Source: Burkholderiaceae bacterium (GTDB taxonomy: Bacteria > Pseudomonadota > Gammaproteobacteria > Burkholderiales > Burkholderiaceae). From it: 64,000 nucleotides of DNA. Numbering within the stretch: position 1 is the first letter of the stretch; each line of letters starts with the position of its first letter. The notes under the pieces were generated by a model. It did no database searches. It saw nothing but the letters and a program-made list of their open reading frames with translations, and had not been told where the DNA came from. The DNA is taken from positions 108-64,107 of the forward strand of contig JAVKLU010000020.1 of NCBI GenBank assembly GCA_031538895.1, read 5' to 3'. The position numbers and the translations under genes were made by a program. Positions 9,259-39,242 of the stretch are shown here, piece after piece.

Positions 9259-11883
9259 ATGGTTCAATTCGCCAAAGAAACCCTCCCCATTTCTCTAGAA
9301 GACGAGATGCGCAAAAGTTATCTCGATTACGCCATGAGTGTGATTGTGGGACGTGCGCTGCCCGATGTTCGTGATGGTTTAAAACCGGTGCATCGACGCG
9401 TTTTGTTTGCGATGCACGAAACCAATAATGTGTGGAATCGTTCTTACGTCAAATGCGCACGCGTCGTTGGGGAGGTGATGGGTAAATACCATCCTCATGG
9501 CGATCAAGCGATTTACGACACTTTGGTGCGAATGGCGCAAAATTTTTCATTGCGCTATCCACTGGTTGATGGACAAGGAAACTTTGGCTCGATCGATGGC
9601 GACAACGCTGCGGCAATGCGTTACACCGAGTGCCGACTGGACAAAATCGCTGACGAGTTACTGGCCGATATTGATAAAGACACCGTTGACTTTGTTCCCA
9701 ATTACGACGGCAAAGAGCGCGAACCGGCCGTACTGCCAACACGCTTGCCGAACTTGTTAATCAATGGGTCATCGGGAATTGCGGTGGGAATGGCGACCAA
9801 TATTCCGCCGCACAATTTAAATGAAATTACTAAAGGTGTACTGTATTTGCTGGCCAATCCTGAAGCGACGATTGATGAGTTGATGGGTTTTATTCCGGCG
9901 CCTGATTTTCCTACTGGCGGTTTAATTTATGGCGTATCGGGAATTCGCGACGCCTATCACAGCGGACGTGGACGCGTCGTGATGCGCGCCAAAACACATT
10001 TTGAACCATACGGTTCGGGTGATCGCCAAGCGATTGTTGTCGACGAAATTCCTTACCAAGTCAATAAAAAAAGCCTGATCGAACGGATGGCTGAATTGGT
10101 ACGCGATAAAAAATTAGACGGCATTAGCGATGCACGCGACGAGTCCGATAAATCGGGGATGCGTTTAGTGATTGAGTTAAAACGCGGTGAAATCCCTGAA
10201 GTCGTATTAAATAATTTATACAAACACACACAGTTACAAGACAGCTTTGGAATCAATATGGTGGCGCTGGTCGATGGTCAGCCGCGCTTATTGAATATCA
10301 AACAAGTCTTGCAATCTTTTCTCAATCACCGCCGCGAAGTCATCACACGCCGCACCGTTTTTGAATTACGCAAAGCGCGTGATCGCGGTCATGTGCTGGA
10401 AGGTTTAGCCGTGGCACTGGCCAACATCGATGACTTTATCGCCTTGATTAAAGCCGCGCCAACACCGCCTGAAGCGCGCATCGCCCTGATGAATAAAACT
10501 TGGGATTCATCCTTAGTGCGAAATATGTTGGAGCGTGCTGCGCAAAATAACGCGGGCGATGTCAGTGCCTATCGTCCGGAATCTTTGCCGGCTGATTTTG
10601 GTTTGCAAGGTGATGGTTTGTATCGTTTGTCAGAAATTCAAGCGCAAGAAATTTTGCAGATGCGTTTGCAACGTTTGACCGGTTTAGAGCAAGACAAAAT
10701 CTTGAACGAATATCATGAAATCATGACGCACATCAGCGACTTGATTGATATTTTAAAAACGCCTGCTCGGGTCACACAAATCATCATTGAAGAAACCACT
10801 GCCGTGCAATTGGCTTACGGTGAAGGTAATCCACGTCGTTCAGAAATCGAACTCAATTCAGCGGATTTAGAAACTGAAGATTTAATCACGCCAGAAAACC
10901 GCGTTGTCACCATCAGTCACACCGGTTATATCAAAGCACAAGCGCTCTCGGACTACCGCGCGCAAAAACGCGGCGGACGCGGCAAAGCGGCCACTCAAAT
11001 GAAAGAAGACGATTGGGTTGAACAATTATTTATTGGCCATACACATGACTTTATTTTGTTCTTCTCAAACCGTGGTCGCGTGTACTGGCAAAAAGTATGG
11101 GAACTGCCAATCGGCAGTCGTGCTGGGCGTGGCAAACCACTGGTCAATTTATTCCCTATGGAAGAGGGTGAAAAAATCACCGTCACCTTGCCATTGGATG
11201 GCGGGATGAGCAAATTTCCCCAAGACCATTTTGTATTTTTAGGAACCGCCGCCGGCGTAGTGAAAAAAACACCTTTGTCGGAGTTTTCTAACCCACGCAA
11301 AAACGGCATCATCGCGGTTGATTTAGATGAAGGTGATGTCTTGATCGGCGCCGCGTTGACTGATGGCACATACGACGTGATGCTGTTCTCTGACGCGGGT
11401 AAAGCAGTACGCTTTGACGAAAACGATGTGCGCAGTGTCGGCCGTGGGGCACGCGGTGTTCGCGGAATGAATTTAGATGAAGGTCAATCGGTGATTGCCT
11501 TACTGGTGGCTAAAGACGAAGCACAATCGGTGCTGACCGCCACTGAAAACGGTTTTGGTAAACGCACCTCGATTACTGAATACACGCGCCATGGCCGTGG
11601 TACTAAAGGAATGACGGCGATCAAGACCTCGGAACGAAACGGTAAAGTTGTCGCCGCGACGCTGGCGAACGATACTGACGAAGTGATGTTGATCACCAAC
11701 GGCGGTATATTGATTCGCACCCGTGTGGCTGAGATTCGAGAAATGGGGCGCGCGACACAAGGCGTGCGTTTAATTTCAATTGATGAAAACAGTTTACTGT
11801 CCGGCCTGCACCGGATTAACGAGGCAATGATTGGTGATGATGAAGAAGAAGAAGGTGAAGATGATTTTTTCTTAGTCGGTTAA
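9259..11883 (+). CDS. gyrA: DNA gyrase subunit A
   Basis: Canonical GyrA N-terminus ([28 protein letters not shown]), the active-site region AAMRYTE, and an acidic C-terminal tail. Start at MVQFAKE. Confidence 0.95.
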
Positions 11884-27363: not shown

Positions 27364-28218
27364 ATGCGTATGAATATCGGTAAAAGCGCGGGTCAAAACA
27401 GGAGCAGTATTTTGGTCATGGATTCAGGCGTGGGAGGACTATCGATTTTGCGGCATTTACTGCCGCACTACCCCCATCACGCTTTGCATTATTTTGCCGA
27501 CTCCGCGCACGCACCTTATGGTGACAAAACCGATCAATGGGTCTGTGCACGCGTGTTAGATATTGTCGAGAATCACCATCCTCAAAATCTCGCTGCTCTG
27601 GTATTAGCCAGTAGCACACTAACCGCCGCCGCCGCCAATAATTTGCGCACACGCTATCCCACGCTTCCTATTGTGGGGGTTGAACCGGGATTAAAGCCCG
27701 CGCTTGCCGCCACGCGTAAGCATCGTATCGGGGTTTTGGCAACGCGTTTGACGGTCAATAGCGACAAATTTTTAAACTTGCTCTCACACCTCAAAACCAG
27801 CGAACCACATACCCAATGGGTGATACAAGCCTGCCCGGGCTTGGTCGAGCAAATTGAAAAAGTCGACTGGGACTATCCCAAAATACGTGCGCTGATCGAA
27901 CATTATTGCCAGCCCTTGCGCGAACAATCTGTTGATACGGTCGTGTTGGGTTGCACACACTACCCTTTTGTTGCCGATATGATTGGCGACGCATTAACGC
28001 CATCAGTCACGATTATTGATATTGGGCAAGCCGTTGCTGCGCAAGTCCAGCGCCTAGTGTCACACCATTATTTTGATTCACACCGCACTTATTTTGACTC
28101 AAACCACACTACAGCTCCCGTGACGGTGAGCACCTCTGGCGATGCGCAAGCCTTTGCCAATTTGTTTGAACGTTTATTGAACACCCCCGCCTCAGTGACG
28201 CAATGGGTAGATAGGTAA
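27364..28218 (+). CDS. murI: glutamate racemase
   Basis: [10 protein letters not shown] and GCTHYPF catalytic Cys motifs. Confidence 0.85.
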
Positions 28219-28277
28219 ACAGCTCAACCGTCCATTCAGTCAAGTTTGAATTTTTCCCTTCCCATTTTACTTTTATC

Positions 28278-29099
28278 ATGAATTTTTCATCCCGATTAGA
28301 ACACGCATGGACACAACAAAACTCTTTACTGTGCGTCGGCTTGGATCCTGACCTGGCGCAGATGCCGGCGCATTTACATCATCATGATGCGTGCACTCAA
28401 ATCGATTTTTTTTGCCGTGACATGATTGATGCTTGCGCGCCGTATGTTTGCGCATTCAAACCGCAAATCGCCTATTTCGCCAGCGTTCACGCCGAATCGA
28501 TTTTAGAAAAATTATGTCACTACATCAAGCAGCGCTATCCACACATCGCCTTGATTCTGGACGCCAAACGTGGTGATATTGGCAGCACTGCGACGCATTA
28601 CGCGCGCGAAGCATTTGAGCGCTATCACGCCGACGCAGTAACTTTAAATCCCTACATGGGCTTGGACAGCATTGCGCCGTTTTTGCAGTACGCTGATAAA
28701 GGCGTATTTTTGTTGTGCCGCACGTCTAACCCGGGCGGCACGGATATTCAAGGATTACGTTTAGAAAATGGACGCCTGCTGTATGAACACCTCGCACACA
28801 CGATTGCACAGGTTTGGGATACGAACCATCAATGTGGTGTAGTGGTTGGTGCAACCTTTCCAGAAGAACTCGCACGCGTTCGTGCATTAGCGCCAAACCT
28901 ACCGATTCTGGCGCCTGGTGTCGGCGCACAGGGCGGCGACATCGCCGCGACGGTTGCCGCAGCTTGCGATAGCAAAGGTTTAGGATTGATCATCAATTCA
29001 TCCCGCGCGATTTTGTACGCCAACAGTGGCACTGATTTCGCGCGCGCCGCTGCCAGCGCGGCTCAAACTAGCCGCGACGCGATCAATGTTTGTAGATGA
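28278..29099 (+). CDS. pyrF: orotidine-5'-phosphate decarboxylase (type 2)
   Basis: LCVGLDPD..., [11 protein letters not shown], about 273 aa, long-form PyrF. Confidence 0.85.
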
Positions 29100-29216
29100 T
29101 GCCGCTTCGCAAGGTGCTATTCCAAAAATCCGCTCCCTTATGTGAGAAAAAACGTCAGAAAAAATATCTCCATAATTGCCTTTTCAAGGTAGATAATCAT
29201 CTATACAATTCAAACC

Positions 29217-29447
29217 ATGAACTCAAAACTGACATGGCACGAACCAAAGAGACAAGCGGCGTTAGCTGAGCGTGGTCTTGACTTTGCTGATGCCAACCAG
29301 ATTTTTGCCAGCGCGACGTTTGAGTATGAGGATACGCGAGAAAACTATGGCGAAAAACGCATGATTTGTTTTGGCTACCTGTACGGTCGTTTGACAGTGC
29401 TTGGTTATGTTCAACGTGACGATGATCGTCATATTTTTTCAACGTGA
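29217..29447 (+). pseudogene. brnT: BrnT-family (DUF497) toxin, C-terminally truncated by a tandem duplication
   Basis: WHEPKRQAALAERGLDFADA..IF......EDTRENYGEKR is BrnT-like. The conserved C-terminal R.I.S.RKA motif (RHIFSMRKANERE) is only readable in a different frame after a 28-bp duplication. Confidence 0.65.
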
Positions 29448-29466
29448 CGATGGTCGTCACATTTTC
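29411..29466 (+). repeat. 28-bp imperfect tandem duplication inside brnT
   Basis: tcaacgtgacgatgatcgtcatattttt / tcaacgtgacgatggtcgtcacattttc, 25 of 28 identical. 28 is not a multiple of 3, so it causes a frameshift and a TGA at 29445-29447. Confidence 0.85.
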
Positions 29467-29482
29467 TCAATGAGGAAAGCAA

Positions 29483-29839
29483 ATGAACGCGAACAATCAA
29501 AATTTGGGTAGTGATATGGCAAGAGTGGATGCACACGAGATTGCCCCGCAAGAGTACGACGTGCTTCCCGAACTGACGCAAGCCGACCTTGCTCGCGGGG
29601 TTTGGAAGGTTGCGGGTAAAGAGGTAACGCCAGCAGAGGGCAAAGCGGCTTTTCGTTCGGCACTGAAAAAGCAAAAAATCAACATCACCCTTGACCCCGA
29701 CGTGCTGGGTTGGTATCGCTCGCAGGCTGGCGGTCGTGGCTATCAAACGCTGATCAACGCCACGCTTCGAGAGGCCATGACGACCCACACGATAGAGGAC
29801 ACTGTGCGGCGCGTTATCCGCGAGGAACTACACCGCTAA
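29483..29839 (+). CDS. brnA: BrnA-family antitoxin
   Basis: 118 aa directly downstream of brnT. The C-terminal block KQKINITLDPDVLGWYRSQAGGRGYQTLINATLREAM matches the BrnA/DUF4415-type pattern. Confidence 0.7.
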   Translation: MNANNQNLGSDMARVDAHEIAPQEYDVLPELTQADLARGVWKVAGKEVTPAEGKAAFRSALKKQKINITLDPDVLGWYRSQAGGRGYQTLINATLREAMTTHTIEDTVRRVIREELHR

Positions 29840-29890
29840 ATTTGCCCCCGCCCCGCCTCTGCCCCCTCCCCGCCCTGCGGGCAACCCAAA

Positions 29891-29903
29891 GCGGCTACGC
29901 CGC
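29891..29903 (-). promoter_or_regulatory. short GC hairpin 3' of VR2 (candidate DGR target-recognition hairpin)
   Basis: GCGGC-TAC-GCCGC, located 5 nt beyond the stop codon of target 2. An analogous hairpin sits in the same position after VR1. Confidence 0.5.
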
Positions 29904-29907
29904 CCAA

Positions 29908-30438
29908 TCACTGACTGGCACGCACCAACCGAACTTGGCCGTAGTAGCCGTAGCGGTTGCCGTCGCCGACCTTGCCGTAGCCGAAATCGACGACCCAGGC
30001 GTAGCCGCTAGTGCCCACATACGGCGAAGATGACCAGTACCAGTTGCTGGGCGTGCTTGGAAAGGCCGTGCTGTCGATGCTGGGGTTTTGGCAACCCTTG
30101 TCGGCGAGACTGGTCAGCTCTTTCACATTGGGCAGACGCCAACCAGTCGTGCTGTTTGCGGTGTTGGCACTTTTGGCCCGGACCAGCGCTTGCTCGTGTG
30201 TATAACTTGCTGCCGTGCCGGTGCAGCTGCTGCCGCTCAGGGTTTGGCCCTCGCTGCAGCGCTTCCACACCAAGCCGGTGCGCGTGTCGGTCACCTCCTC
30301 GCCGCTGATGCTGAAGCGCTCTGCGGTGGGCCAGCTGGGGCAGGCGGCATGGGCTTTTAGGGCGGTGGCGCTCAGGGTTGCCGCCACCAGGGCCATGCAC
30401 AGCATGGGGGCCGCAGCCCGTGTCATTGAGTGTTTCAT
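29908..30438 (-). CDS. secreted DUF1566-like (Lcl C-terminal/C-type-lectin-fold) protein, DGR target 2
   Basis: Strong SD (AAGGAG) before the ATG at 30438 and a signal peptide MKHSMTRAAAPMLCMALVAATLSATALKAHA. GWRLPNVKEL motif, with the C-terminus carrying VR2 (…SSPYVGTSGYAWVVDFGYGKVGDGNRYGYYGQVRLVRASQ). Confidence 0.8.
   Translation of the reverse strand: MKHSMTRAAAPMLCMALVAATLSATALKAHAACPSWPTAERFSISGEEVTDTRTGLVWKRCSEGQTLSGSSCTGTAASYTHEQALVRAKSANTANSTTGWRLPNVKELTSLADKGCQNPSIDSTAFPSTPSNWYWSSSPYVGTSGYAWVVDFGYGKVGDGNRYGYYGQVRLVRASQ
29913..30032 (-). repeat. DGR variable region VR2 (120 nt)
   Basis: Aligns to TR end to end. Differences lie at TR adenines, except one C/G site at 29971, with one extra codon. 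Confidence 0.85.
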
Positions 30439-31850
30439 GTGATCTCCTTGAAATAAAAATCGGTGATTTCCCGCCGTCGTGTGCCGTGTTTGAGCCAGCC
30501 GGTTTGCACTGCCTGTACCCGGCTGCCGTCGGGTGTTTGCAGGGGTGCAAAGCGCAGCCATTCAAAGCCCTTTTGCACCTCGCACACCGCATGCGGCCAC
30601 TGCTGGCGCAGCCAGGCCACTTGCTCGGCCAGCGTGGTGCCTTGCAACACCCAACGCGGGGCAATCTGCCCAGCGGGGTTGATGTGAAACAAGGCCCGCA
30701 GCCAGCCGTAACGCGCAAACAAGGCATGGCTCAAGCGCACGCTGTGTGCATGGGCAAAGTGCCCCCAATAGCTGGCCAGCACGTGCTGCAACTGCGCCAG
30801 CTGCTGGGCGCTGGTGTAGATGCCACCACCCCGGCAATGGCGGGCGGCCCATTGCGCCAACTTTTGCTTGCAGTGCTGCACCACGCGGCGGCGCACCAGG
30901 CGGTGGTGCGGGTAAACCACGTAGCCCAAAAAGTCCACCCCTGCTTGCAAGGGGGCCACCCGGTGTTCGTCTTTGAGCTTTAAGCGTAAACGTGTTTGTA
31001 AAAAATCTGCAATTTGACTTTGCCACAGGCGCAGCTGCGCGGGGTTGTCGGCCAGCAGCACAAAGTCGTCCACATAGCGCACATAGTGCCGCACCTTGAG
31101 GTTGTGCTTGACAAACTGGTCCAGCTCGTTCAAGTACACATTGGCAAAAAATTGGCTGGTCAGGTTGCCAATAGGTAGGCCGCAACCGGCTGGGGCGTTG
31201 CACAGCCGCTTGTGCGGGGGCACGCGCTGCGCTGCTTCGGGGTTGCGCACGGCTTCTTGCACGGGGTGGGCCAGCAGTTTGTGGCACAGGCTGCGCAGGG
31301 AGGTGTAGATCCCCGCCTTTGCATCCAATTTGGCTGTCAACAACCGGTATAGCGTAGGCCGGTGGATGGTGTTGAAAAAATTGTGCACATCCAGCTGCAA
31401 AAACCAGCCTTGTCCGCCGCAAGCGTTTTGCTGCGCCCGCATGAAGGTTTGCAGCCGGTCTACCGCCGCGTGGCTGCCTTTGCCGCGCCGGTTGGCGTAG
31501 CTGTCGTGAATAAACACCGGCTCATACAGCGCCTCTAGCTGTGGCACCAGCCAGTGGTGCACCACCCGGTCGGCAAAGTCGGGGGCGTGGATTTCGCGGG
31601 TTTTGGGCCGGTTGACCACAAAAGAAACAGTGCGGCGCGGCACCCAGGTGCCTGCGCCCAAATCGGCTTGCAATTGCTGCAAATGCTGCAACCAGCGGCT
31701 GGCAAAACGCAGCTGGTTGGCGCTGGGCTTTTTGCCGCGCCGCGCGGCCAACCACGCGGCATGGCATTGGGCCAGCGACACCCGCACCGGCACCCGGGGG
31801 CTGGCGGTACGCGGGGTCTGAACATTCACGGCTTGCAAGTGGCGCTCCAC
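30435..31850 (-). CDS. DGR reverse transcriptase
   Basis: RT motifs: PKTREIHAPDFADRVVHH, NRRGKGSHAA, FLQLDVHNFF, GLPIGNLTSQFFANVYLNELD (the DGR-typical [IL]G...SQ box), and YVRYVDDFVLL (YxDD). The ORF-track start is a GTG 1 nt from TR, so the true start may be further in. Confidence 0.9.
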   Translation of the reverse strand: MERHLQAVNVQTPRTASPRVPVRVSLAQCHAAWLAARRGKKPSANQLRFASRWLQHLQQLQADLGAGTWVPRRTVSFVVNRPKTREIHAPDFADRVVHHWLVPQLEALYEPVFIHDSYANRRGKGSHAAVDRLQTFMRAQQNACGGQGWFLQLDVHNFFNTIHRPTLYRLLTAKLDAKAGIYTSLRSLCHKLLAHPVQEAVRNPEAAQRVPPHKRLCNAPAGCGLPIGNLTSQFFANVYLNELDQFVKHNLKVRHYVRYVDDFVLLADNPAQLRLWQSQIADFLQTRLRLKLKDEHRVAPLQAGVDFLGYVVYPHHRLVRRRVVQHCKQKLAQWAARHCRGGGIYTSAQQLAQLQHVLASYWGHFAHAHSVRLSHALFARYGWLRALFHINPAGQIAPRWVLQGTTLAEQVAWLRQQWPHAVCEVQKGFEWLRFAPLQTPDGSRVQAVQTGWLKHGTRRREITDFYFKEIT

Positions 31851-31851
31851 A

Positions 31852-31968
31852 GACTGGCACGCACCAACCGAACTTGGTTGTTGTTGTTGCGGTTGTTGTT
31901 GTTGACGTTGCCGTTGTTGAAATTGACGTTCCAGGCGTTGTTGCTATTGCCCACATACGGCGAAGATG
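31852..31968 (-). repeat. DGR template repeat (TR, 117 nt)
   Basis: In the target frame it reads SSPYVG-NSNNAWNVNFNNGNVNNNNRNNNN-QVRLVRAS, with 14 AAC and 2 AAT codons. It lies in the avd-RT intergenic space and has no credible start of its own. Confidence 0.9.
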
Positions 31969-32058
31969 CTGGGCGCACCTTACCACTGCAGCCAATGCCC
32001 CAAGCCAGGGTGTACGCTGGCGAACCCGCTGCGCATCCCAAAGGGTAGCGCCGCATCG

Positions 32059-32589
32059 TCATGGTTGAACCCCATCAGCCGCCCTTGGCGCAAAGCCTGG
32101 CGCTGGTGGGGTGGCACACCCACTCAGTGAAGCGGGGTGGGCCCCAGCCGGTGGCTGGGGCTGTGACCCGGCGCCCCGGTCAGGGGCGACTTGGTTTGGG
32201 CGTTGGCGGCGGGCCAAGGCCTGCCACCAACCGCCGCACTGTTTGCCTATGCCCGCCGCCAAAGTAGCGGCTTGCTCAAAAGCCGCAAAGCTGGGGCTGG
32301 GCTGGCCCTGCTGCCCCTTGTGTGTGCGCGCAAAAGCGCCCACATCCATGGTCAGCTGCAAGCAGAGCTTGTAATCGTCTACCAGCCAGAGCAGCGCCTG
32401 CACATGCTCGCCCTGGCGGGGCTTGTCGTGCACGGCTTTGTTGACTTGCTGCATGATGCCAAAGGCCCGCTGGCGCAAGTCCGTGCCCACGGTGTATTTG
32501 TGGTAACGGGCAAAACGCATGACCATTTGCTCGGTGTGCAGCAGCAAGCGGCGGCAGTCGCGGTAAATGGGGGGCAGTGGTGTGCTCAT
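32059..32589 (-). CDS. avd: Avd-like accessory variability determinant (four-helix-bundle protein)
   Basis: Lies between VR1 and TR. The helical, basic N-terminal ~125 aa (…YRDCRRLLLHTEQMVMRFARYHKYTVGTDLRQRA…AAGIGKQCGGWWQ) resembles the bAvd / 23S-IVS four-helix-bundle family. A P/A/G-rich tail of about 50 aa follows. Confidence 0.75.
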   Translation of the reverse strand: MSTPLPPIYRDCRRLLLHTEQMVMRFARYHKYTVGTDLRQRAFGIMQQVNKAVHDKPRQGEHVQALLWLVDDYKLCLQLTMDVGAFARTHKGQQGQPSPSFAAFEQAATLAAGIGKQCGGWWQALARRQRPNQVAPDRGAGSQPQPPAGAHPASLSGCATPPAPGFAPRAADGVQP

Positions 32590-32605
32590 GATTTACAAAG
32601 CCAAA

Positions 32606-32616
32606 GCGCTTCGCGC
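32606..32616 (-). promoter_or_regulatory. short GC hairpin 3' of VR1
   Basis: GCGC-TTC-GCGC, located 5 nt beyond the stop codon of target 1. The coding strand reads GCGC-GAA-GCGC. Confidence 0.5.
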
Positions 32617-32620
32617 CCAA

Positions 32621-35600
32621 TTACTGACTGGCACGCACCAACCGAACTCGGAGGCCGTCGTAGCGGTAGTAGTAGCCGCGGCTGCTGACGTCGCCGCCGC
32701 CGAAACCGACGTCCCAGGCGTAGTAGCTATCGCCCACATACGGCGAAGATGTCCAGTAATAGCTGTAGCTTGGCGTGTTGGGGAACCAGGTGCCATCCAC
32801 CGTGGGCCCGGGGTAGGCCACGCTGTAGTCCACGATGCTTTGCAGCTCGTCAGCGGTGGGCAAGCGCCAATCGCTGTAGCCGCACAGGCCTCTTGCGTTG
32901 ACGGCATTCACATAACCGTAGGTGTTGGTGGTCGCATCCATTTGCGATTGGGAGCCGTAGTAGCTGCTGTGGTAATTGGTGTAAGTGCCGTTGGGGTCGA
33001 GTGCGGGATTGCCCCTTGTGACACCACTGCCACTGGCCGGTTTGCCCTCCCACATTAAACCCGTGATATTGTCTTTGACGCATTCAGTCAGCGCATAGCT
33101 CCCCACCCTGCTGTAGCTCAAACCCAGCTTGCCGTCGCTGTTGTCATTATTGCTCACGTCGCGGCCCACCATGCCGTCTTGCTGGCTGTTGAGGCTAACG
33201 GCCGCGCTGCTGGTGCAACTGATGAGCGTGTTGCTGCCCGCGCTATAGCATTGGCTGGCGGTGATGCCGGTGTCGGTGAGTTTGCTGGTAGTGTACGCGG
33301 TAATGGTGGCCGACACCAAGGCACTATTGCCGGTGGTGTTGTAAGTGTTGGCTTTGACCAGCGCGCCGGCAGCGTAGGTGCTGCTTGACCTGGTGCTCCA
33401 ACCCCCACTACCACTGGCCACCAATAAGGCGGTACTGTTATCTGGCCAAGTAATTTTGATATTGGCATTATTGGCGGCCGTGCCGCTAACCACCACCGTG
33501 CCATTGGCTTGGGCTGCCGCACTAGTAATGGTGGGCGGAGTGGGGGAATTTTTCGCACAGACCCCACTAGCGTTTAGGCCTTGACCTACTGCACAAACGG
33601 TAAAGGTGTAAGTCTGTGTGCCCAATAAGGTACCCGTTTTATTCGCCCCACCATAATAAGTAATGGTGGCGGCATAACTGCCCGCAGTGTTGATGGTGAT
33701 GCTAATTTTGCCCGCTACCCCCGCACTAACGTTTGCGGTTTGTTCTGTGTAGCCTGTTAATTGCCACGCCACCGAACCTACATTGCTGGGTGCACCCTCT
33801 AACCAAAAATCAACACTGCTGCCTACCGTCACCGTAGGGACGCTGGTTTTGATGGTGGCGTCAAAACCAGCCGTATACAAGTCAGTTGTTTTGGCATTAA
33901 GAATCGCCAATACCGGCTCTGCCATCAAAGTGTCCGTCATTTTTTGCGATCCCTTCAGAATCACGTCTGAACTGATGACAAAAGCTTCGTCGGCACGCGC
34001 ATTCATTTGTTGCCCAATGACATATGCATCTAAAAAACCAGTGACGACATTTAAAGTGCCTTTGGCGTATTGCATCGATACTGAATCAGGAAACATGGCC
34101 AAGGCCGAATTCACCAAATTCAGCCAAACCTGCGCCATAACCATTTTTTCGTTGCTAGCGCTAAGTGTTACGCTGCCCGTAAATACGTCGGCAATCAAAG
34201 CTGCATTGCTCATATTTCCCGCAGATGCAAGACTGCTCACACATTGCAAAGGCACCGTAATCGCGGTAGTAAAATTTTTACTGGTCAGATTGTCATTACT
34301 AATTTCTCGCACTGCCGTTTGGTATTCATTGACTCTGGACTTTACATCAGGACCACAATTGTTGATTAGACTAATGATCTGCGCTGAACGATTCAAAGCA
34401 ATAATGTACTGCACCATTTTTTGCGTATCACTGGTTTGCTGTATAACCTGTGTCCCACCATCCGCCGCGATTGCCGCTACAGGATAGGCTATTTGCAGTA
34501 CCCCCGTAACCGACTTAACCCCAGCTCCAGCAACTGCCAACCAGTCGTTTAGGGCGCCACGTCCATACAAGCCTTGTCCCGTGGCCGACCAATTAGCCTT
34601 GTATAAATCACTACTGAGATATTGATTGAGCGCCGCGAATTGTTCAGCGTAGTTATTTTTAATATAGCTAGTCCGTTCAGTGTCGGGAATACCTGCCAAC
34701 TTTCCGAGTTCACTTTTTCGCTCATTTTCACTTAAACGCTCCCAAACAATACGCTTACCCGAAATAATACTTTTCGCCTTAGCGTTATCGATCATGGCTT
34801 GAATTGTTGCCAATTGTGCGCTTGTCCAAGCGGCTTTATTTTTAACCACTAAATTTTGTGCCGCCATATTGCTAGGTAATGTCAATTCACCGACATTGGC
34901 CCCTGTAAGGACATCATTTTGCAATTGTCTAAAAAGTAAATAGCCCGCATGTAAACACGATACAGTGGTAGCACAACCGTAATTAGGGGACGCCATAAGG
35001 CCCAACTTACCATCATCCGACGAACCCCAATTACCCCGCCCTGTAGTGCTTGAGTGGTAATAACCGCCGGCACGTCCTACCGGTAATTTATTATTGGCTA
35101 TTGTTTGATTGGGACGTATCTCCGGTGTTAGCCCTAACAGCACTTCTGTAACAGTGGCATTACCCACTTTAGCTTGCTGTAGCAGACTATTGCTGCGCGC
35201 CTGCGACGTGTTATTGGCACGAAAACGTTGCCCAGCAAAGCTAATTAAATAATCTCCATCTGACACAAGATTAGATGTGTTCACGCCCAAACCAATACCC
35301 ACATACACGGGAATAGTGGGAAGATTGTTTTCTGAACGGGCAATCGCGGCAGGCAAATAACCCGCCTGCGCATAATTGCCACTTAAGCCAACATCTTGCT
35401 TAGTTTGTTCGGAAAAAGCAGTAACTGGTTTTCCCATTTCATAGCAAGACACCTCCTGACATCCCGGAATAAGTCCTCCCGCAAATTGACCGTCAGGCAA
35501 ACTAATCCCATCAATCACACCATCTGCCGACAAAATTCCGGAATGAGGACTCCCTAAGGTCATTAAGGATGCCACTTTGCCCCCTACCTCTCTATGTGCT

Positions 35601-37036
35601 GTGGCATACCGCGACAGTCCTTGCAACATAGTGCGTGTCAGCACGCCACCAAACGAGTGCGCCACAATGTGCACTTTTTTGCCAGACAACTTATAAATAT
35701 ATTCTACCGTCGTCGCTAAATCATCCGCCGCCAAACGAAAGCTTTGGTTGGTGTACCAATGGAACTCAAAGGGAACCAAATTATTGCCGTTGGGCAATGC
35801 TGTTTGCATCGCCAGCTTAGGAAAGTTGCCCCAAGTACCTTCCCCTCCGCCAATCGTAAGATTAAAACCATGAACAAATAAAATGGGCTCGTACCCATCC
35901 CATTTAAACGAACGAACATCGCCTGTGATGCTGGTCTGTACTTCATAAGCAGGGCGTAGTTCGGTAGTAATGAAGAGTTCTGTCGCATCCTTAATATCGT
36001 TAAAAGTAGATTTGATCTTGTCCAAAACACCAATCCCAGGATCGTTATAACTTGGTAGACCGAAAGTCGGATCCCAAAATCGTTCGGAAACTACATCTAA
36101 AGCCGAATCGAACGCAACTTCATCCCCCTGTAGCACCACTTGCCCTAAGCCATTGCTAATAATAGGTTTAATGCCATTGTTGGCGGTACTGTGAGATACG
36201 TAAGGGTCTTTATTCAGGCTGGGGCTAGAAAATGCTTGTACAACTCTCTGTATTGCTTGGCTTATTCTCGCCAAAATAGACTGGCTACCGACATTCGCAC
36301 TAGATAAAACGCTATAGGGGTCATAAGCCGGTTTTCCTTGAGGTAGGTTAATTTTTATATTTTTATCTAATGCACTTTTCGGCAAAGAAAACTGAATTTT
36401 TTTACCGTTATCGGTATTCGCTACGGTAGTGGCTATTTGCACGGGTGCTTCTAGATTATTTGCAGATATGCTTGCCGTTTTCCCGTCACCAAGGTCAATA
36501 GACGCCCCCTGTGCGCCAAGACTGGTTGTGCTTTGTACAGCCGGTTCTACCACCGTTAGAGTGCCTTTAATGAGTGCGTAATTTTGAGTCTGAACATTGG
36601 TTGCCCTGACCACATAGTCTTGCTTGCCTACTGTTAGTTTTTTAGCATCAATTGTGAAATAGGTTTCGCCGTCTGTGCCTTTGGCTAACTGAGACATTAC
36701 GCCACTATCAAGCGTATACGTAATATCTGCTGGCCGGACGCTAGCTGCATAGCTGGCTTTAACTTGCCCATATACCGCTTGTCCTTTCACTACAGAAGTA
36801 GCGTTATCCAAAATTTGTACACTGAGAAGACCCAAATCTTGGATGTCTACTTGCTTAGCAGCCGTGGTAGGCGTGGTAGGCGTGGTAGGCGTGGTAGGCG
36901 TGGGCGTGGGCGTGGGCGTGGGCGTGGGACACGCGGTCACTAGTCCCACCAAAACACTGGCAATCAAAAACCGCGCAAAGCGTAAAAAACTTGGCGCGCT
37001 TGGTCTGTTTATTTGCGCCCGACGGGCGCGCGTCAT
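32621..37036 (-). CDS. large surface lipoprotein with an alpha/beta-hydrolase (lipase/esterase-like) domain and a C-terminal DUF1566/CLec domain, DGR target 1
   Basis: Lipobox LVTA-C after a hydrophobic segment, then a (TP)n/(TTP)n linker. Hydrolase motifs ILFVHGF and HIVAHSFGG (G/A-x-S-x-G). C-terminal SDWRLPTADEL motif and VR1 (…SSPYVGDSYYAWDVGFGGGDVSSRGYYYRYDGLRVRLVRASQ). Confidence 0.85.
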   Translation of the reverse strand: MTRARRAQINRPSAPSFLRFARFLIASVLVGLVTACPTPTPTPTPTPTTPTTPTTPTTAAKQVDIQDLGLLSVQILDNATSVVKGQAVYGQVKASYAASVRPADITYTLDSGVMSQLAKGTDGETYFTIDAKKLTVGKQDYVVRATNVQTQNYALIKGTLTVVEPAVQSTTSLGAQGASIDLGDGKTASISANNLEAPVQIATTVANTDNGKKIQFSLPKSALDKNIKINLPQGKPAYDPYSVLSSANVGSQSILARISQAIQRVVQAFSSPSLNKDPYVSHSTANNGIKPIISNGLGQVVLQGDEVAFDSALDVVSERFWDPTFGLPSYNDPGIGVLDKIKSTFNDIKDATELFITTELRPAYEVQTSITGDVRSFKWDGYEPILFVHGFNLTIGGGEGTWGNFPKLAMQTALPNGNNLVPFEFHWYTNQSFRLAADDLATTVEYIYKLSGKKVHIVAHSFGGVLTRTMLQGLSRYATAHREVGGKVASLMTLGSPHSGILSADGVIDGISLPDGQFAGGLIPGCQEVSCYEMGKPVTAFSEQTKQDVGLSGNYAQAGYLPAAIARSENNLPTIPVYVGIGLGVNTSNLVSDGDYLISFAGQRFRANNTSQARSNSLLQQAKVGNATVTEVLLGLTPEIRPNQTIANNKLPVGRAGGYYHSSTTGRGNWGSSDDGKLGLMASPNYGCATTVSCLHAGYLLFRQLQNDVLTGANVGELTLPSNMAAQNLVVKNKAAWTSAQLATIQAMIDNAKAKSIISGKRIVWERLSENERKSELGKLAGIPDTERTSYIKNNYAEQFAALNQYLSSDLYKANWSATGQGLYGRGALNDWLAVAGAGVKSVTGVLQIAYPVAAIAADGGTQVIQQTSDTQKMVQYIIALNRSAQIISLINNCGPDVKSRVNEYQTAVREISNDNLTSKNFTTAITVPLQCVSSLASAGNMSNAALIADVFTGSVTLSASNEKMVMAQVWLNLVNSALAMFPDSVSMQYAKGTLNVVTGFLDAYVIGQQMNARADEAFVISSDVILKGSQKMTDTLMAEPVLAILNAKTTDLYTAGFDATIKTSVPTVTVGSSVDFWLEGAPSNVGSVAWQLTGYTEQTANVSAGVAGKISITINTAGSYAATITYYGGANKTGTLLGTQTYTFTVCAVGQGLNASGVCAKNSPTPPTITSAAAQANGTVVVSGTAANNANIKITWPDNSTALLVASGSGGWSTRSSSTYAAGALVKANTYNTTGNSALVSATITAYTTSKLTDTGITASQCYSAGSNTLISCTSSAAVSLNSQQDGMVGRDVSNNDNSDGKLGLSYSRVGSYALTECVKDNITGLMWEGKPASGSGVTRGNPALDPNGTYTNYHSSYYGSQSQMDATTNTYGYVNAVNARGLCGYSDWRLPTADELQSIVDYSVAYPGPTVDGTWFPNTPSYSYYWTSSPYVGDSYYAWDVGFGGGDVSSRGYYYRYDGLRVRLVRASQ
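32626..32751 (-). repeat. DGR variable region VR1 (126 nt)
   Basis: Aligns to TR with invariant ends. All substitutions I can see are at TR adenines. It is three codons longer than TR. Confidence 0.85.
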
Positions 37037-37043
37037 TAGGGGA

Positions 37044-37136
<93 letters not shown>

Positions 37137-37231
37137 GTTGGGCATCCTACTTACAATTAAAGTACGCCCATTGTACAGATACCGCAAAAATTATCGTCCT
37201 TGGCGATAAACTTCCCCGTTTGTTTGATTTA

Positions 37232-37374
37232 GGGCACTTCTATCAATTCATTTTTGCGGCGAATTGCTTTTTTGCACAGTACGCGAAATCCTCACCTACT
37301 GTATGTACGCTCCGGTTTCTGTGTGCTGTGCGCCTCGCACTTCATCCGCACATTCTGTATTTATAGAAGTGCCC
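37232..37374 (-). mobile_element. 143-bp MITE-like element, copy A (inverted relative to B and C)
   Basis: Terminal inverted repeats GGGCACTTCTAT.AAT / ATT.ATAGAAGTGCCC, flanked by a direct TTTA/TTTA. About 95% identical to the copies at 52206 and 59249. Confidence 0.75.
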
Positions 37375-37487
37375 TTTAGCTAAATGACGAACAGTGTCAC
37401 GCATTCGCTTGACTTTGCCGTCTTTGATACTGCTATCAGACACCGCAACCACGCATTTTTTGACGTTCTTATTTCTCTCATCACACT

Positions 37488-39242
37488 ATGTCCAAGGAAA
37501 CCTTTATCACCAGCAAAGACGCCTCTTTAGAAAGCTCTATCCGCGTGTTGAGCGCGCAATTACTCGCGCTTGGTTTTCACATCGAAGAACGCTCATGGTT
37601 AAACGATGTTAAGGGCATTTGGTCAGTCCATATCAGCGATCGCGATTGTCCACGTTTGTTTAGCAATGGCAAAGGGGCCAGTCAATTGGCCGCACGCGCA
37701 TCCGCCTTGGGCGAGTATTTTGAACGTTTGGGAACCCATTATTTTTGGACCCATTTTTATTTAGGGGCAAAAAATGCCGTCAAGGAATTTGTCCATTACC
37801 CCAATGAAAAGTGGTTTCCACTATCCGACAAAACAGATCAATGGCCAAAAGAGATTTTGACGCCAGAGTTGCAAAAATTTTATAACCCAGATGGTGCGGT
37901 ATTGGCAAGTCAATTAGTTGATTTGAATTCAGGCTCCACTGCGCGCGGCATTTGCGCCATTCCTTATCAAAGGCTACGCGACGACGCGAGGGTTTATTTT
38001 CCCGTCAACCTGATTGGCAATTTATACGTCAGCAATGGCATGTCAGCGGGCAATACCAAAATCGAAGCACGCACGCAAGCCTTGTCTGAAATTTTTGAGC
38101 GTTACATCAAATTTCACATCATCAAAGACGGCCTGTGTTTGCCCGACGTGCCTGCGACTGTACTGGCGCGCTATCCACAGATTCAAGCAGGGATAGACGG
38201 ATTGCGCGCCGCAGGATATGGCATTTTGGTGAAAGATGCGTCTTTGGGTGGCCAATATCCCGTCATGTGCGTGACGCTGTTAAACCCCACAGATCAAGGT
38301 TGCTTTGCCAGTTTTGGGGCGCATCCGCGTTTTGAAGTCGCGCTAGAACGCGCACTGACCGAGCTTTTGCAAGGACGAGCGATTGACGATCTCACCGGTT
38401 TTGCCGAACCCGGATTTGATATGACCGAAATTGCTGACGCGCAAAATTTAGAAATTCATTTTGTTGATTCCAGTGGCGTGATTAGTTGGAATTTTTTGCG
38501 CAATACGCCAGATTACGAACTTGTCGATTGGAATTTTTCTCACACCACGCAACAGGATTACGACTGGTGCGTGAACACAATTCACGCCTGCCACAGTGAC
38601 GCGGGCTCCGGCGAAATCTATGTCGCTGATTTTGAACATTTGGGTGTTTACACCTGCCGCATTTTGGTGCCAGGCATATCAGAGATTTATCCCATTGAGG
38701 AATTGCAATGGCAAAACAATAGCGTGGGAAATTTAGTCCGTCCCGCCCTGCTGGACCTCCCCAATTTAAGCGTCACGGCGTGTCGCGAGTTATTAGACAC
38801 TTTTTTGGAACTCGACTTGGCCGACGAGTTGCCACTGACCACACTGATCGGTCTGGCCGCTGACCCAAACACTATTTGGGCGACGATGCGCGTGGGTGAG
38901 ATCAAAGCTTTGCTGGGCATTGCGGTCAAAGATCATGAGGTTATTTTGGACGCGTGTTCTTGGATTCGTCAGTTTGGTCAAATGACCGAAGAGCGCGCAC
39001 GCGTCTATCGTTGTATCGCCAACATTGTGCAATTGGAAGACGAAATGGAAACACTCTATGACTTTATCGATCAATTGCAATTGATTTACGGCGCACCAAC
39101 ATTCGCACAAGCGCAGAAATTACTGGGCGGTCAAAGTGTGGGCAGCGAGCGATTTTTTGGTCTTAATACGCTGGGGCCCAATATGGAAGGCAGCCAAATG
39201 CACACACAGATTTTGATCGCGTATGACAAGGTACTGGGATAA
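37488..39242 (+). CDS. ycaO: YcaO-type protein
   Basis: 584 aa, collinear with E. coli YcaO from the N-terminus (…KDASLESSI…LGFHIEERSWLN…WSVHI.D..C…SNGKGAS…A.ASALGEYFERL). Confidence 0.9.
   Translation: MSKETFITSKDASLESSIRVLSAQLLALGFHIEERSWLNDVKGIWSVHISDRDCPRLFSNGKGASQLAARASALGEYFERLGTHYFWTHFYLGAKNAVKEFVHYPNEKWFPLSDKTDQWPKEILTPELQKFYNPDGAVLASQLVDLNSGSTARGICAIPYQRLRDDARVYFPVNLIGNLYVSNGMSAGNTKIEARTQALSEIFERYIKFHIIKDGLCLPDVPATVLARYPQIQAGIDGLRAAGYGILVKDASLGGQYPVMCVTLLNPTDQGCFASFGAHPRFEVALERALTELLQGRAIDDLTGFAEPGFDMTEIADAQNLEIHFVDSSGVISWNFLRNTPDYELVDWNFSHTTQQDYDWCVNTIHACHSDAGSGEIYVADFEHLGVYTCRILVPGISEIYPIEELQWQNNSVGNLVRPALLDLPNLSVTACRELLDTFLELDLADELPLTTLIGLAADPNTIWATMRVGEIKALLGIAVKDHEVILDACSWIRQFGQMTEERARVYRCIANIVQLEDEMETLYDFIDQLQLIYGAPTFAQAQKLLGGQSVGSERFFGLNTLGPNMEGSQMHTQILIAYDKVLG

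Follow-up and report, generated by a model that had tools for sequence, protein, structure and literature searches.

The window considered here, a 64,000-nucleotide stretch of a contig assigned to a Burkholderiaceae bacterium, carries on its minus strand, at 37036..29908, the successive parts of a diversity-generating retroelement (DGR): a giant target gene containing VR1, an avd-like gene, the TR, the reverse transcriptase (RT) gene and a small target gene containing VR2 (Table 1). The host is a divergent betaproteobacterium: no protein found is more than 62% identical to its TrmD, and identity to named Burkholderiales is ~61%. Convergent with the small target gene lies a BrnT/BrnA toxin-antitoxin pair (29217-29839, plus strand; Pfam E ~1e-13 for each), with two tandem 28-nt repeats, each containing the palindrome TGACGATNATCGTCA, spanning the 3' end of brnT and the spacer that separates it from brnA (29410-29465).

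Table 1. Features of the DGR cassette, in the order in which the minus strand is read (window coordinates; L010 and L022 are two sister cassettes described in the text)
Feature	Position	Strand	Description
Target gene 1	32621..37036	-	1471-aa putative lipoprotein: signal ...LVTAC, PT-rich linker, alpha/beta-hydrolase-like middle, C-terminal Lcl_C
VR1	32626..32751	-	126 nt, 9 nt longer than TR; 3 extra codons in first AAC run
VR1 hairpin GCGC-GAA-GCGC	32606..32616	-	begins 10 nt after VR1 3' block; kept in L010 and L022
Avd-like gene	32059..32589	-	176 aa; weak NCBIfam DivGenRetAVD match
TR	31852..31968	-	117 nt, A-rich, (AAC)n runs; non-coding
DGR reverse transcriptase	30435..31850	-	471-aa ORF; gene callers give 467 aa
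Shine-Dalgarno AAGGAG	30444..30449	-	inside RT 3' end, 5 nt before target-2 ATG
ATGA overlap, target-2 start/RT stop	30435..30438	-	read from sequence; overlap leads into VR-bearing ORF in 11 relatives
Target gene 2	29908..30438	-	176 aa, putative secreted single-domain Lcl_C/DUF1566 protein
Predicted Sec signal peptide	30346..30438	-	aa 1-31, ...KAHA/AC; manual reading
VR2	29913..30032	-	120 nt, 3 nt longer than TR; 1 extra codon in second AAC run
VR2 hairpin GCGGC-GTA-GCCGC	29891..29903	-	begins 10 nt after VR2 3' block, just beyond stop codon

The Lcl_C domain of the giant target 1 protein spans aa 1319-1468 (Pfam, E = 3e-27). Directly upstream of its gene, at 37048-37111 (minus), is a perfect (AAGC)16 repeat, which lies between the annotated ATG at 37036 and an out-of-frame ATG at 37136 that has a weak AGGA Shine-Dalgarno sequence. 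Translation from 37136 would run through the repeat in a frame offset by +1 from that of the 1471-aa ORF; 15 or 18 repeats would generate an in-frame fusion. The repeat may expose target 1 to slipped-strand phase variation, atop its DGR hypervariation.

The Avd-like gene scores well below the curated cut-off of its NCBIfam model (DivGenRetAVD, E = 1.7e-4, 21.8 bits against 80) and its product is without a sequence match in Pfam or the PDB; homologues occupy this canonical place between target and TR in most relatives (20 or more loci). The RT ORF is intact, matches Pfam RVT_1 and contains the motifs PIGNLTSQ (IGNLTSQ) and YVDD, which conform to the I/LGxxxSQ (motif 4) and YxDD of the DGR clade and mark the enzyme as DGR-type. 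Its best solved relative is a 328-aa RT, 8ub7 (E = 5e-43), which we take to be the Bordetella phage enzyme bRT and which is far ahead of the group II intron and retron RTs.

Pfam recognizes target 2 as an Lcl_C protein with 111 bits against a gathering cut-off of 34.9 (aa 48-173, E = 5e-32, with positions 2-117 of the 117-position model covered). The protein has 423 homologues. An AlphaFold2 model computed with 112 homologues has a mean pLDDT of 86.5, and predicts that the protein folds like a C-type lectin, as expected for a DGR target. A sequence search of the PDB gave no match; the closest fold to the model found by Foldseek is 8q4e, the C-terminal domain of Legionella Lcl (prob 1.00, TM 0.59 on the target, 22% identity), followed by invasin-type domains and the C-type lectin domains of snake venom and CD23. 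By eye, the N-terminus consists of a basic n-region, ~20 hydrophobic residues and an AXA site (AHA/A); residues 1-30 are modelled at pLDDT ~50, and AHAAC is kept among orthologues. Export by the Sec pathway would release a mature protein of ~145 aa with four cysteines. Two other readings of this end of the gene were set aside. That target 2 is a lipoprotein modified at Cys33 is unlikely, since residue -3 is His and the mature part has an even number of cysteines. A start at the in-frame ATG 30561, yielding a 217-aa ORF, would place the extension inside the RT gene and has no signal-like features to recommend it; moreover, orthologue N-termini align at the 30438 ATG and gene callers pick the 176-aa form. 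At the other end of the protein, VR2 codes for aa 137-175 of 176, the C-terminal location that is characteristic of DGR targets, and would provide its ligand-binding surface.

Local pairwise alignment of 29913-30032 with the TR returns VR2 as 30032..29913 and the TR as 31968..31852. Counted on a codon-aware alignment with gaps placed in the AAC runs, VR2 differs from the TR at 20 of 37 adenines and at one of 78 other positions (Fisher p = 2.4e-11); the corresponding figures for VR1 are 24 of 37 and none of 78 (Fisher p = 1e-15). In both VRs, then, differences from the TR are all but restricted to adenines, as is typical of a DGR. A preceding reading of the sequence (the sequence-only reading) had judged VR2 to be as diverged from the TR as VR1 is, which is about right, since 20 changed A sites compare with 24; what it missed is the one extra codon of VR2 and its single non-A change, from AAC in the TR to AAG. 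Between common anchors the TR measures 115 nt, VR2 118 and VR1 124: the (AAC)4 that precedes CAA in the TR corresponds to five variable codons in VR2, and the (AAC)4 that precedes CGC to seven in VR1. Exactly three copies of the 22-nt 3' anchor, GTTCGGTTGGTGCGTGCCAGTC, are present in the window, in VR1, TR and VR2 (none would be expected from shuffled sequence), and no further copy turns up when three mismatches are allowed. The window's full complement is therefore two VRs and one TR.

The Lcl_C domains of the giant and the small target are paralogues with 41% identity (although the GWRLP motif that the two were said to have in common is found only in the small protein, the giant one having DWRLP), and the resemblance of VR2 to the TR might on that account be put down to a paralogous repeat of two Lcl_C genes, arising without reverse transcription. 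However, the similarity is to a non-coding TR, is confined to 117-120 nt and breaks down almost exclusively at TR adenines (p = 2e-11), and the same A-biased pattern is found in 25 related loci, to be described below. The A bias and these 25 loci effectively refute a paralogous repeat.

Past ...CCAGTC, VR1 and VR2 both run on as AGTRATTGG, making ...GTTCGGTTGGTGCGTGCCAGTC-AGTRATTGG the invariant 3' block that they have in common; the TR continues instead as TGTGGAGCG, an IMH*-like tail. An anatomy of IMH, IMH* and inverted repeat has been described for DGR targets (PMC5758913), and the cassette conforms to it, the GC inverted repeats being the two hairpins of Table 1, which stand at the same offset from their VRs and have different stem sequences. 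At the position of the VR2 hairpin, the sister cassette L010 has a longer, 9-bp stem and L022 a 4-5 bp version. With the exception of the one in L010, these hairpins are short (4-5 bp) and no more stable than shuffled sequence; because their energies are unremarkable, the case for them rests on conserved position combined with differing stems. An Rfam scan of 28000-38500 (E ≤ 0.1) returned nothing.

How ordinary is a target on the far side of the RT? A search of metagenome contigs with the exact 31-nt TR-tail/IMH* pattern gave no match, and a scan with the RT protein was used instead. The resulting survey comprises 18 genome and 49 metagenome loci with related RTs of 28-73% identity. In each, TR-like segments were sought on the upstream side of the RT, and A-biased copies of them elsewhere in the locus; 39 loci have enough downstream sequence to be evaluated. 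The hosts include Burkholderiales, other Gammaproteobacteria, Desulfobulbus, Geobacter and Nitrospiraceae. An A-biased VR lies downstream of the RT in 25 of the 39, nearly always in addition to an upstream VR; eight loci have, in its place, two or three targets in tandem upstream, three have a single upstream VR only, and three begin at the RT, so that a TR is not findable there. In 11 related loci (10 non-redundant) a signal-peptide ORF with a VR starts at an ATGA that includes the RT stop, and in one more at a GTGA. With 25 of 39 loci in that state, a downstream target, often overlapping the RT stop, is therefore the usual arrangement in this RT clade. The placement had been described as less common than the canonical upstream one; this is so for DGRs overall, in which two targets are found in 13% of cases (50/372; Wu et al. 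2018, PMC5758913), but within the RT clade it is the majority layout.

The survey also turned up variants of both target arrangements. In L005, L007, L008, L009, L015 and L035, the downstream target, which overlaps the RT, carries Lcl_C domain and VR at ~130 aa from its N-terminus; the targets of L007-L009 extend ~360-520 aa beyond the VR, and the ORFs of L005, L015 and L035 run off the contig. As all these ORFs continue past the VR, the latter is internal rather than C-terminal. A sub-clade (L025-L030, L033 and L052; RT 43-54% identical to the window RT) lacks a downstream target and has two or three in tandem upstream.

Two relatives are close enough to be treated as sister cassettes. L010 (MAG UBA7470) and L022 (a JGI metagenome) share the five-part layout of the window, complete with the 4-nt overlap of RT and target, and are 87-95% identical in DNA sequence to window 33289-29885. 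Their TRs are identical to the window TR over the full repeat. The three VR2s, in contrast, differ mutually at nearly all A-derived positions, while non-A positions of the VRs are TR-like throughout (77 of 78 in the window VR2) and the pre-VR part of the small gene is ~13% diverged between the three lineages. On the simplest reading of this combination (identical TRs, different A sites, TR-like non-A sites and a diverged scaffold), VR2 has been overwritten from the TR after the sister lineages split. Fourteen orthologous small proteins from metagenomes conform to the same picture: they have a nearly invariant scaffold, SSPYVG-x-S-xx-AW-x-V-x-F-xx-G-x-V-xxxx-R-xxxxx-VRLVRASQ, with variation exactly at the AAC/AAT codons of the TR and length variation inside the AAC runs.

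The VR1 of L010 (6744-6857) is a run of N in the public record. In L022 an orphan VR 3' block plus hairpin (11353-11417; 92% identical to window 29949-29885), with neither VR nor Lcl_C ORF, and a hairpin-only copy (10611-10642) lie downstream of the sister DGR, between toxin-antitoxin modules that resemble ParDE, HicAB and HigBA; these orphan copies could be left over from lost targets or be scars of recombination.

The exact target 2 protein is also encoded on three short Logan contigs (from runs SRR25831487, SRR25831488 and SRR25831492). Over 1.2-2.7 kb these are 100% identical to the window, VR2 included, and come from the same strain; no variation of VR2 is visible among them at consensus level. 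That identity across three other sequencing runs could be taken to mean that VR2 is a relic, a former target into which there is no homing in this genome and which now evolves as an ordinary gene. The 3 nt by which VR2 exceeds the TR and its one non-A change are readable as decay since homing ceased, and the cassette looks to have been acquired horizontally (see below). We nevertheless consider a relic quite improbable. The target ORF is intact, as are the RT gene and avd; VR2 equals the TR at 77 of its 78 non-A positions, against a 13% difference between orthologous scaffolds; the 3' recognition block is identical to that of VR1 and the hairpin is retained. In-frame indels adjacent to AAC have been documented in DGRs that look active (PMC5758913) and they recur in relatives with an unchanged TR.

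Across the three sister cassettes, the lengths of VRs relative to the TR are +9, +3, +3, +3 and 0 nt, always as whole codons within (AAC)n, and more cases of +3 and +9 occur in remoter relatives. As the sisters have identical TRs and VRs of unequal length, the length change arose in the VR or the cDNA, not in the TR. Differences between TR and VR length have been reported for 7% of DGRs, mostly as multiples of 3 next to AAC, and ascribed to template slippage; non-A changes occur in 23% (PMC5758913). The extra in-frame codons of both window VRs, at +3 and +9 nt inside (AAC)n, resemble the indels of Fig. 4C-D of Wu et al. 2018 and are best explained by slippage of the RT on (AAC)n. The sister cassettes lend support to that published idea and offer nothing new in kind.

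The RT gene and target gene 2 are joined in a way that invites consideration of how the latter is expressed. The RT ORF ends ...AAG GAG ATC ACA TGA; as had been claimed, its stop codon (TGA, 30437-30435) overlaps an ATG at 30438-30436 on the minus strand and AAGGAG is found at 30449-30444, within the RT 3' end. The AAGGAG is kept in relatives, identical in L010 and L022 and as Shine-Dalgarno-like purine runs in remoter loci. Overlapping stop and start codons and a Shine-Dalgarno sequence inside the upstream gene are the sequence marks of a translationally coupled pair, and from the two together we infer that target 2 is co-transcribed with the RT gene. A scan for promoters and terminators, informative only as to the absence of obvious sites since its total was lower than in shuffled sequences, placed no site between RT and target 2. 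It is very likely that ribosomes ending on the RT would re-initiate at the target 2 ATG. The Shine-Dalgarno sequence also allows independent initiation, and it is a lesser, though real, possibility that target 2 is a genuine DGR target expressed independently of the RT, with a ribosome-binding site of its own and an overlap that reflects mere compaction of the operon. A strong AAGGAG at optimal spacing speaks for independence, as do L006, L011, L012 and L016, which have gaps of 3-26 nt in place of the overlap. On the other hand, the overlap is kept in 11 loci (10 non-redundant) with RTs ranging from ~45% identity up to near-identical sisters, and an internal promoter-like site was not found. 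Conservation of the overlap and lack of a promoter fit co-transcription under either mode of translation.

The DGR core (33289..29885, comprising the last ~220 codons of the giant gene, avd, TR, RT and the small target) has 60-64% GC within a genome of 45-50% GC, and the genomes of L010 and L022 have 58-65% GC. The giant targets of L010 and L022 are full-length homologues of one another (51%), whereas that of the window is homologous to them over its last ~410 aa only (40-43%). The contrast in GC content and the partial homology of the giant proteins suggest, therefore, that the core was acquired by horizontal transfer or recombination, with breakpoints that seem to lie inside the giant gene and just past the VR2 hairpin. 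Given such a GC island, the diversification that separates the lineages could have taken place in donor genomes.

Taking these lines of evidence together, we think it highly probable that target 2 is a competent second DGR target, subject to A-mutagenic retrohoming from a single TR and co-transcribed with the RT gene, and probably translationally coupled to it. The minus-strand segment 30438..29908 would be the last cistron of a chromosomal DGR operon. By analogy with the Bordetella phage and Legionella DGRs, the TR would be transcribed and copied into cDNA by an RT-Avd complex that misincorporates opposite adenines, and the cDNA would replace VR1 or VR2, each marked by the invariant 3' block and by a GC hairpin 10 nt further on. 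That one cassette serves a giant lipoprotein and a small binding domain, as had been proposed, is borne out by two A-biased VRs, each in an Lcl_C domain, and the cassette may still be active in this host.

The nearest well-described counterpart is the DGR of Legionella pneumophila (target LdtA; category 'd', CLec2 VR class, architecture B, target-avd-TR-RT; PMC5758913). Both have an avd-TR-RT core, a surface lipoprotein target with a C-terminal DUF1566-type VR, an AAC-rich TR, and an IMH and GC inverted repeat after the VR, and both are chromosomal rather than phage-borne. The window element differs in its second target 3' of the RT, overlapping the RT stop, in the 1471-aa size of its upstream target and in having two VRs that are both longer than the TR. 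Legionella also provides Lcl (8q4e), which belongs to the same Pfam family as target 2 (PF07603) and is a collagen-like adhesin without DGR diversification, whereas target 2 is a stand-alone domain with a VR tip. DUF1566-type (CLec2) targets are found in 14% of DGRs, the Legionella DGR being an example, with about half of them short and domain-only, and non-phage DGR lineages tend towards multiple targets (PMC5758913). DGRs in which both of two VR-bearing ORFs are DUF1566 proteins have been reported (Yan et al. 2019; PMC6642488), and as many as five DUF1566 targets occur in Stenotrophomonas sp. SKA14 (PMC5758913; PMC6642488). In these multi-target cassettes, as here, a single TR serves several DUF1566 targets. 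Our search of the literature found no statement of an RT clade that as a whole retains one target on each side of avd-TR-RT together with an ATGA overlap of RT stop and target start, although this layout may be listed among the architectures in the supplement to Wu et al. 2018, and a search for DGRs in conjunction with translational coupling returned only an unrelated cyanobacterial genome paper. With these precedents, every feature of the locus is already known in kind: the two-target layout is normal for this family of retroelements and the locus is a well-formed, ordinary example of it.

The current understanding of DGRs is thus left unchanged. What the locus adds is a clean, fully annotated two-target DUF1566 DGR from an uncultured betaproteobacterium and, through its relatives, a generalisation: in this clade a signal-peptide Lcl_C target just downstream of the RT, often overlapping its stop codon, is usual, and annotation pipelines that search mainly upstream of avd-TR-RT would miss half of the clade's targets. 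The three sister cassettes, with identical TRs and unequal VR lengths, constitute a natural data set for the RT-slippage route. A more ambitious proposition, in which the small lectin is an integral and co-inherited part of a compact, mobile 3.4-kb DGR core and slippage is a selected second mode of diversification, strikes us, when both parts are taken jointly, as rather doubtful. If it were true, the core, which ends exactly at the VR2 hairpin, would move between genomes, join its 5' Lcl_C tip by recombination to large surface proteins already resident there and bring along a soluble diversified binder of its own, and slippage of the RT on (AAC)n would be a selected way of varying loop length in this RT clade.
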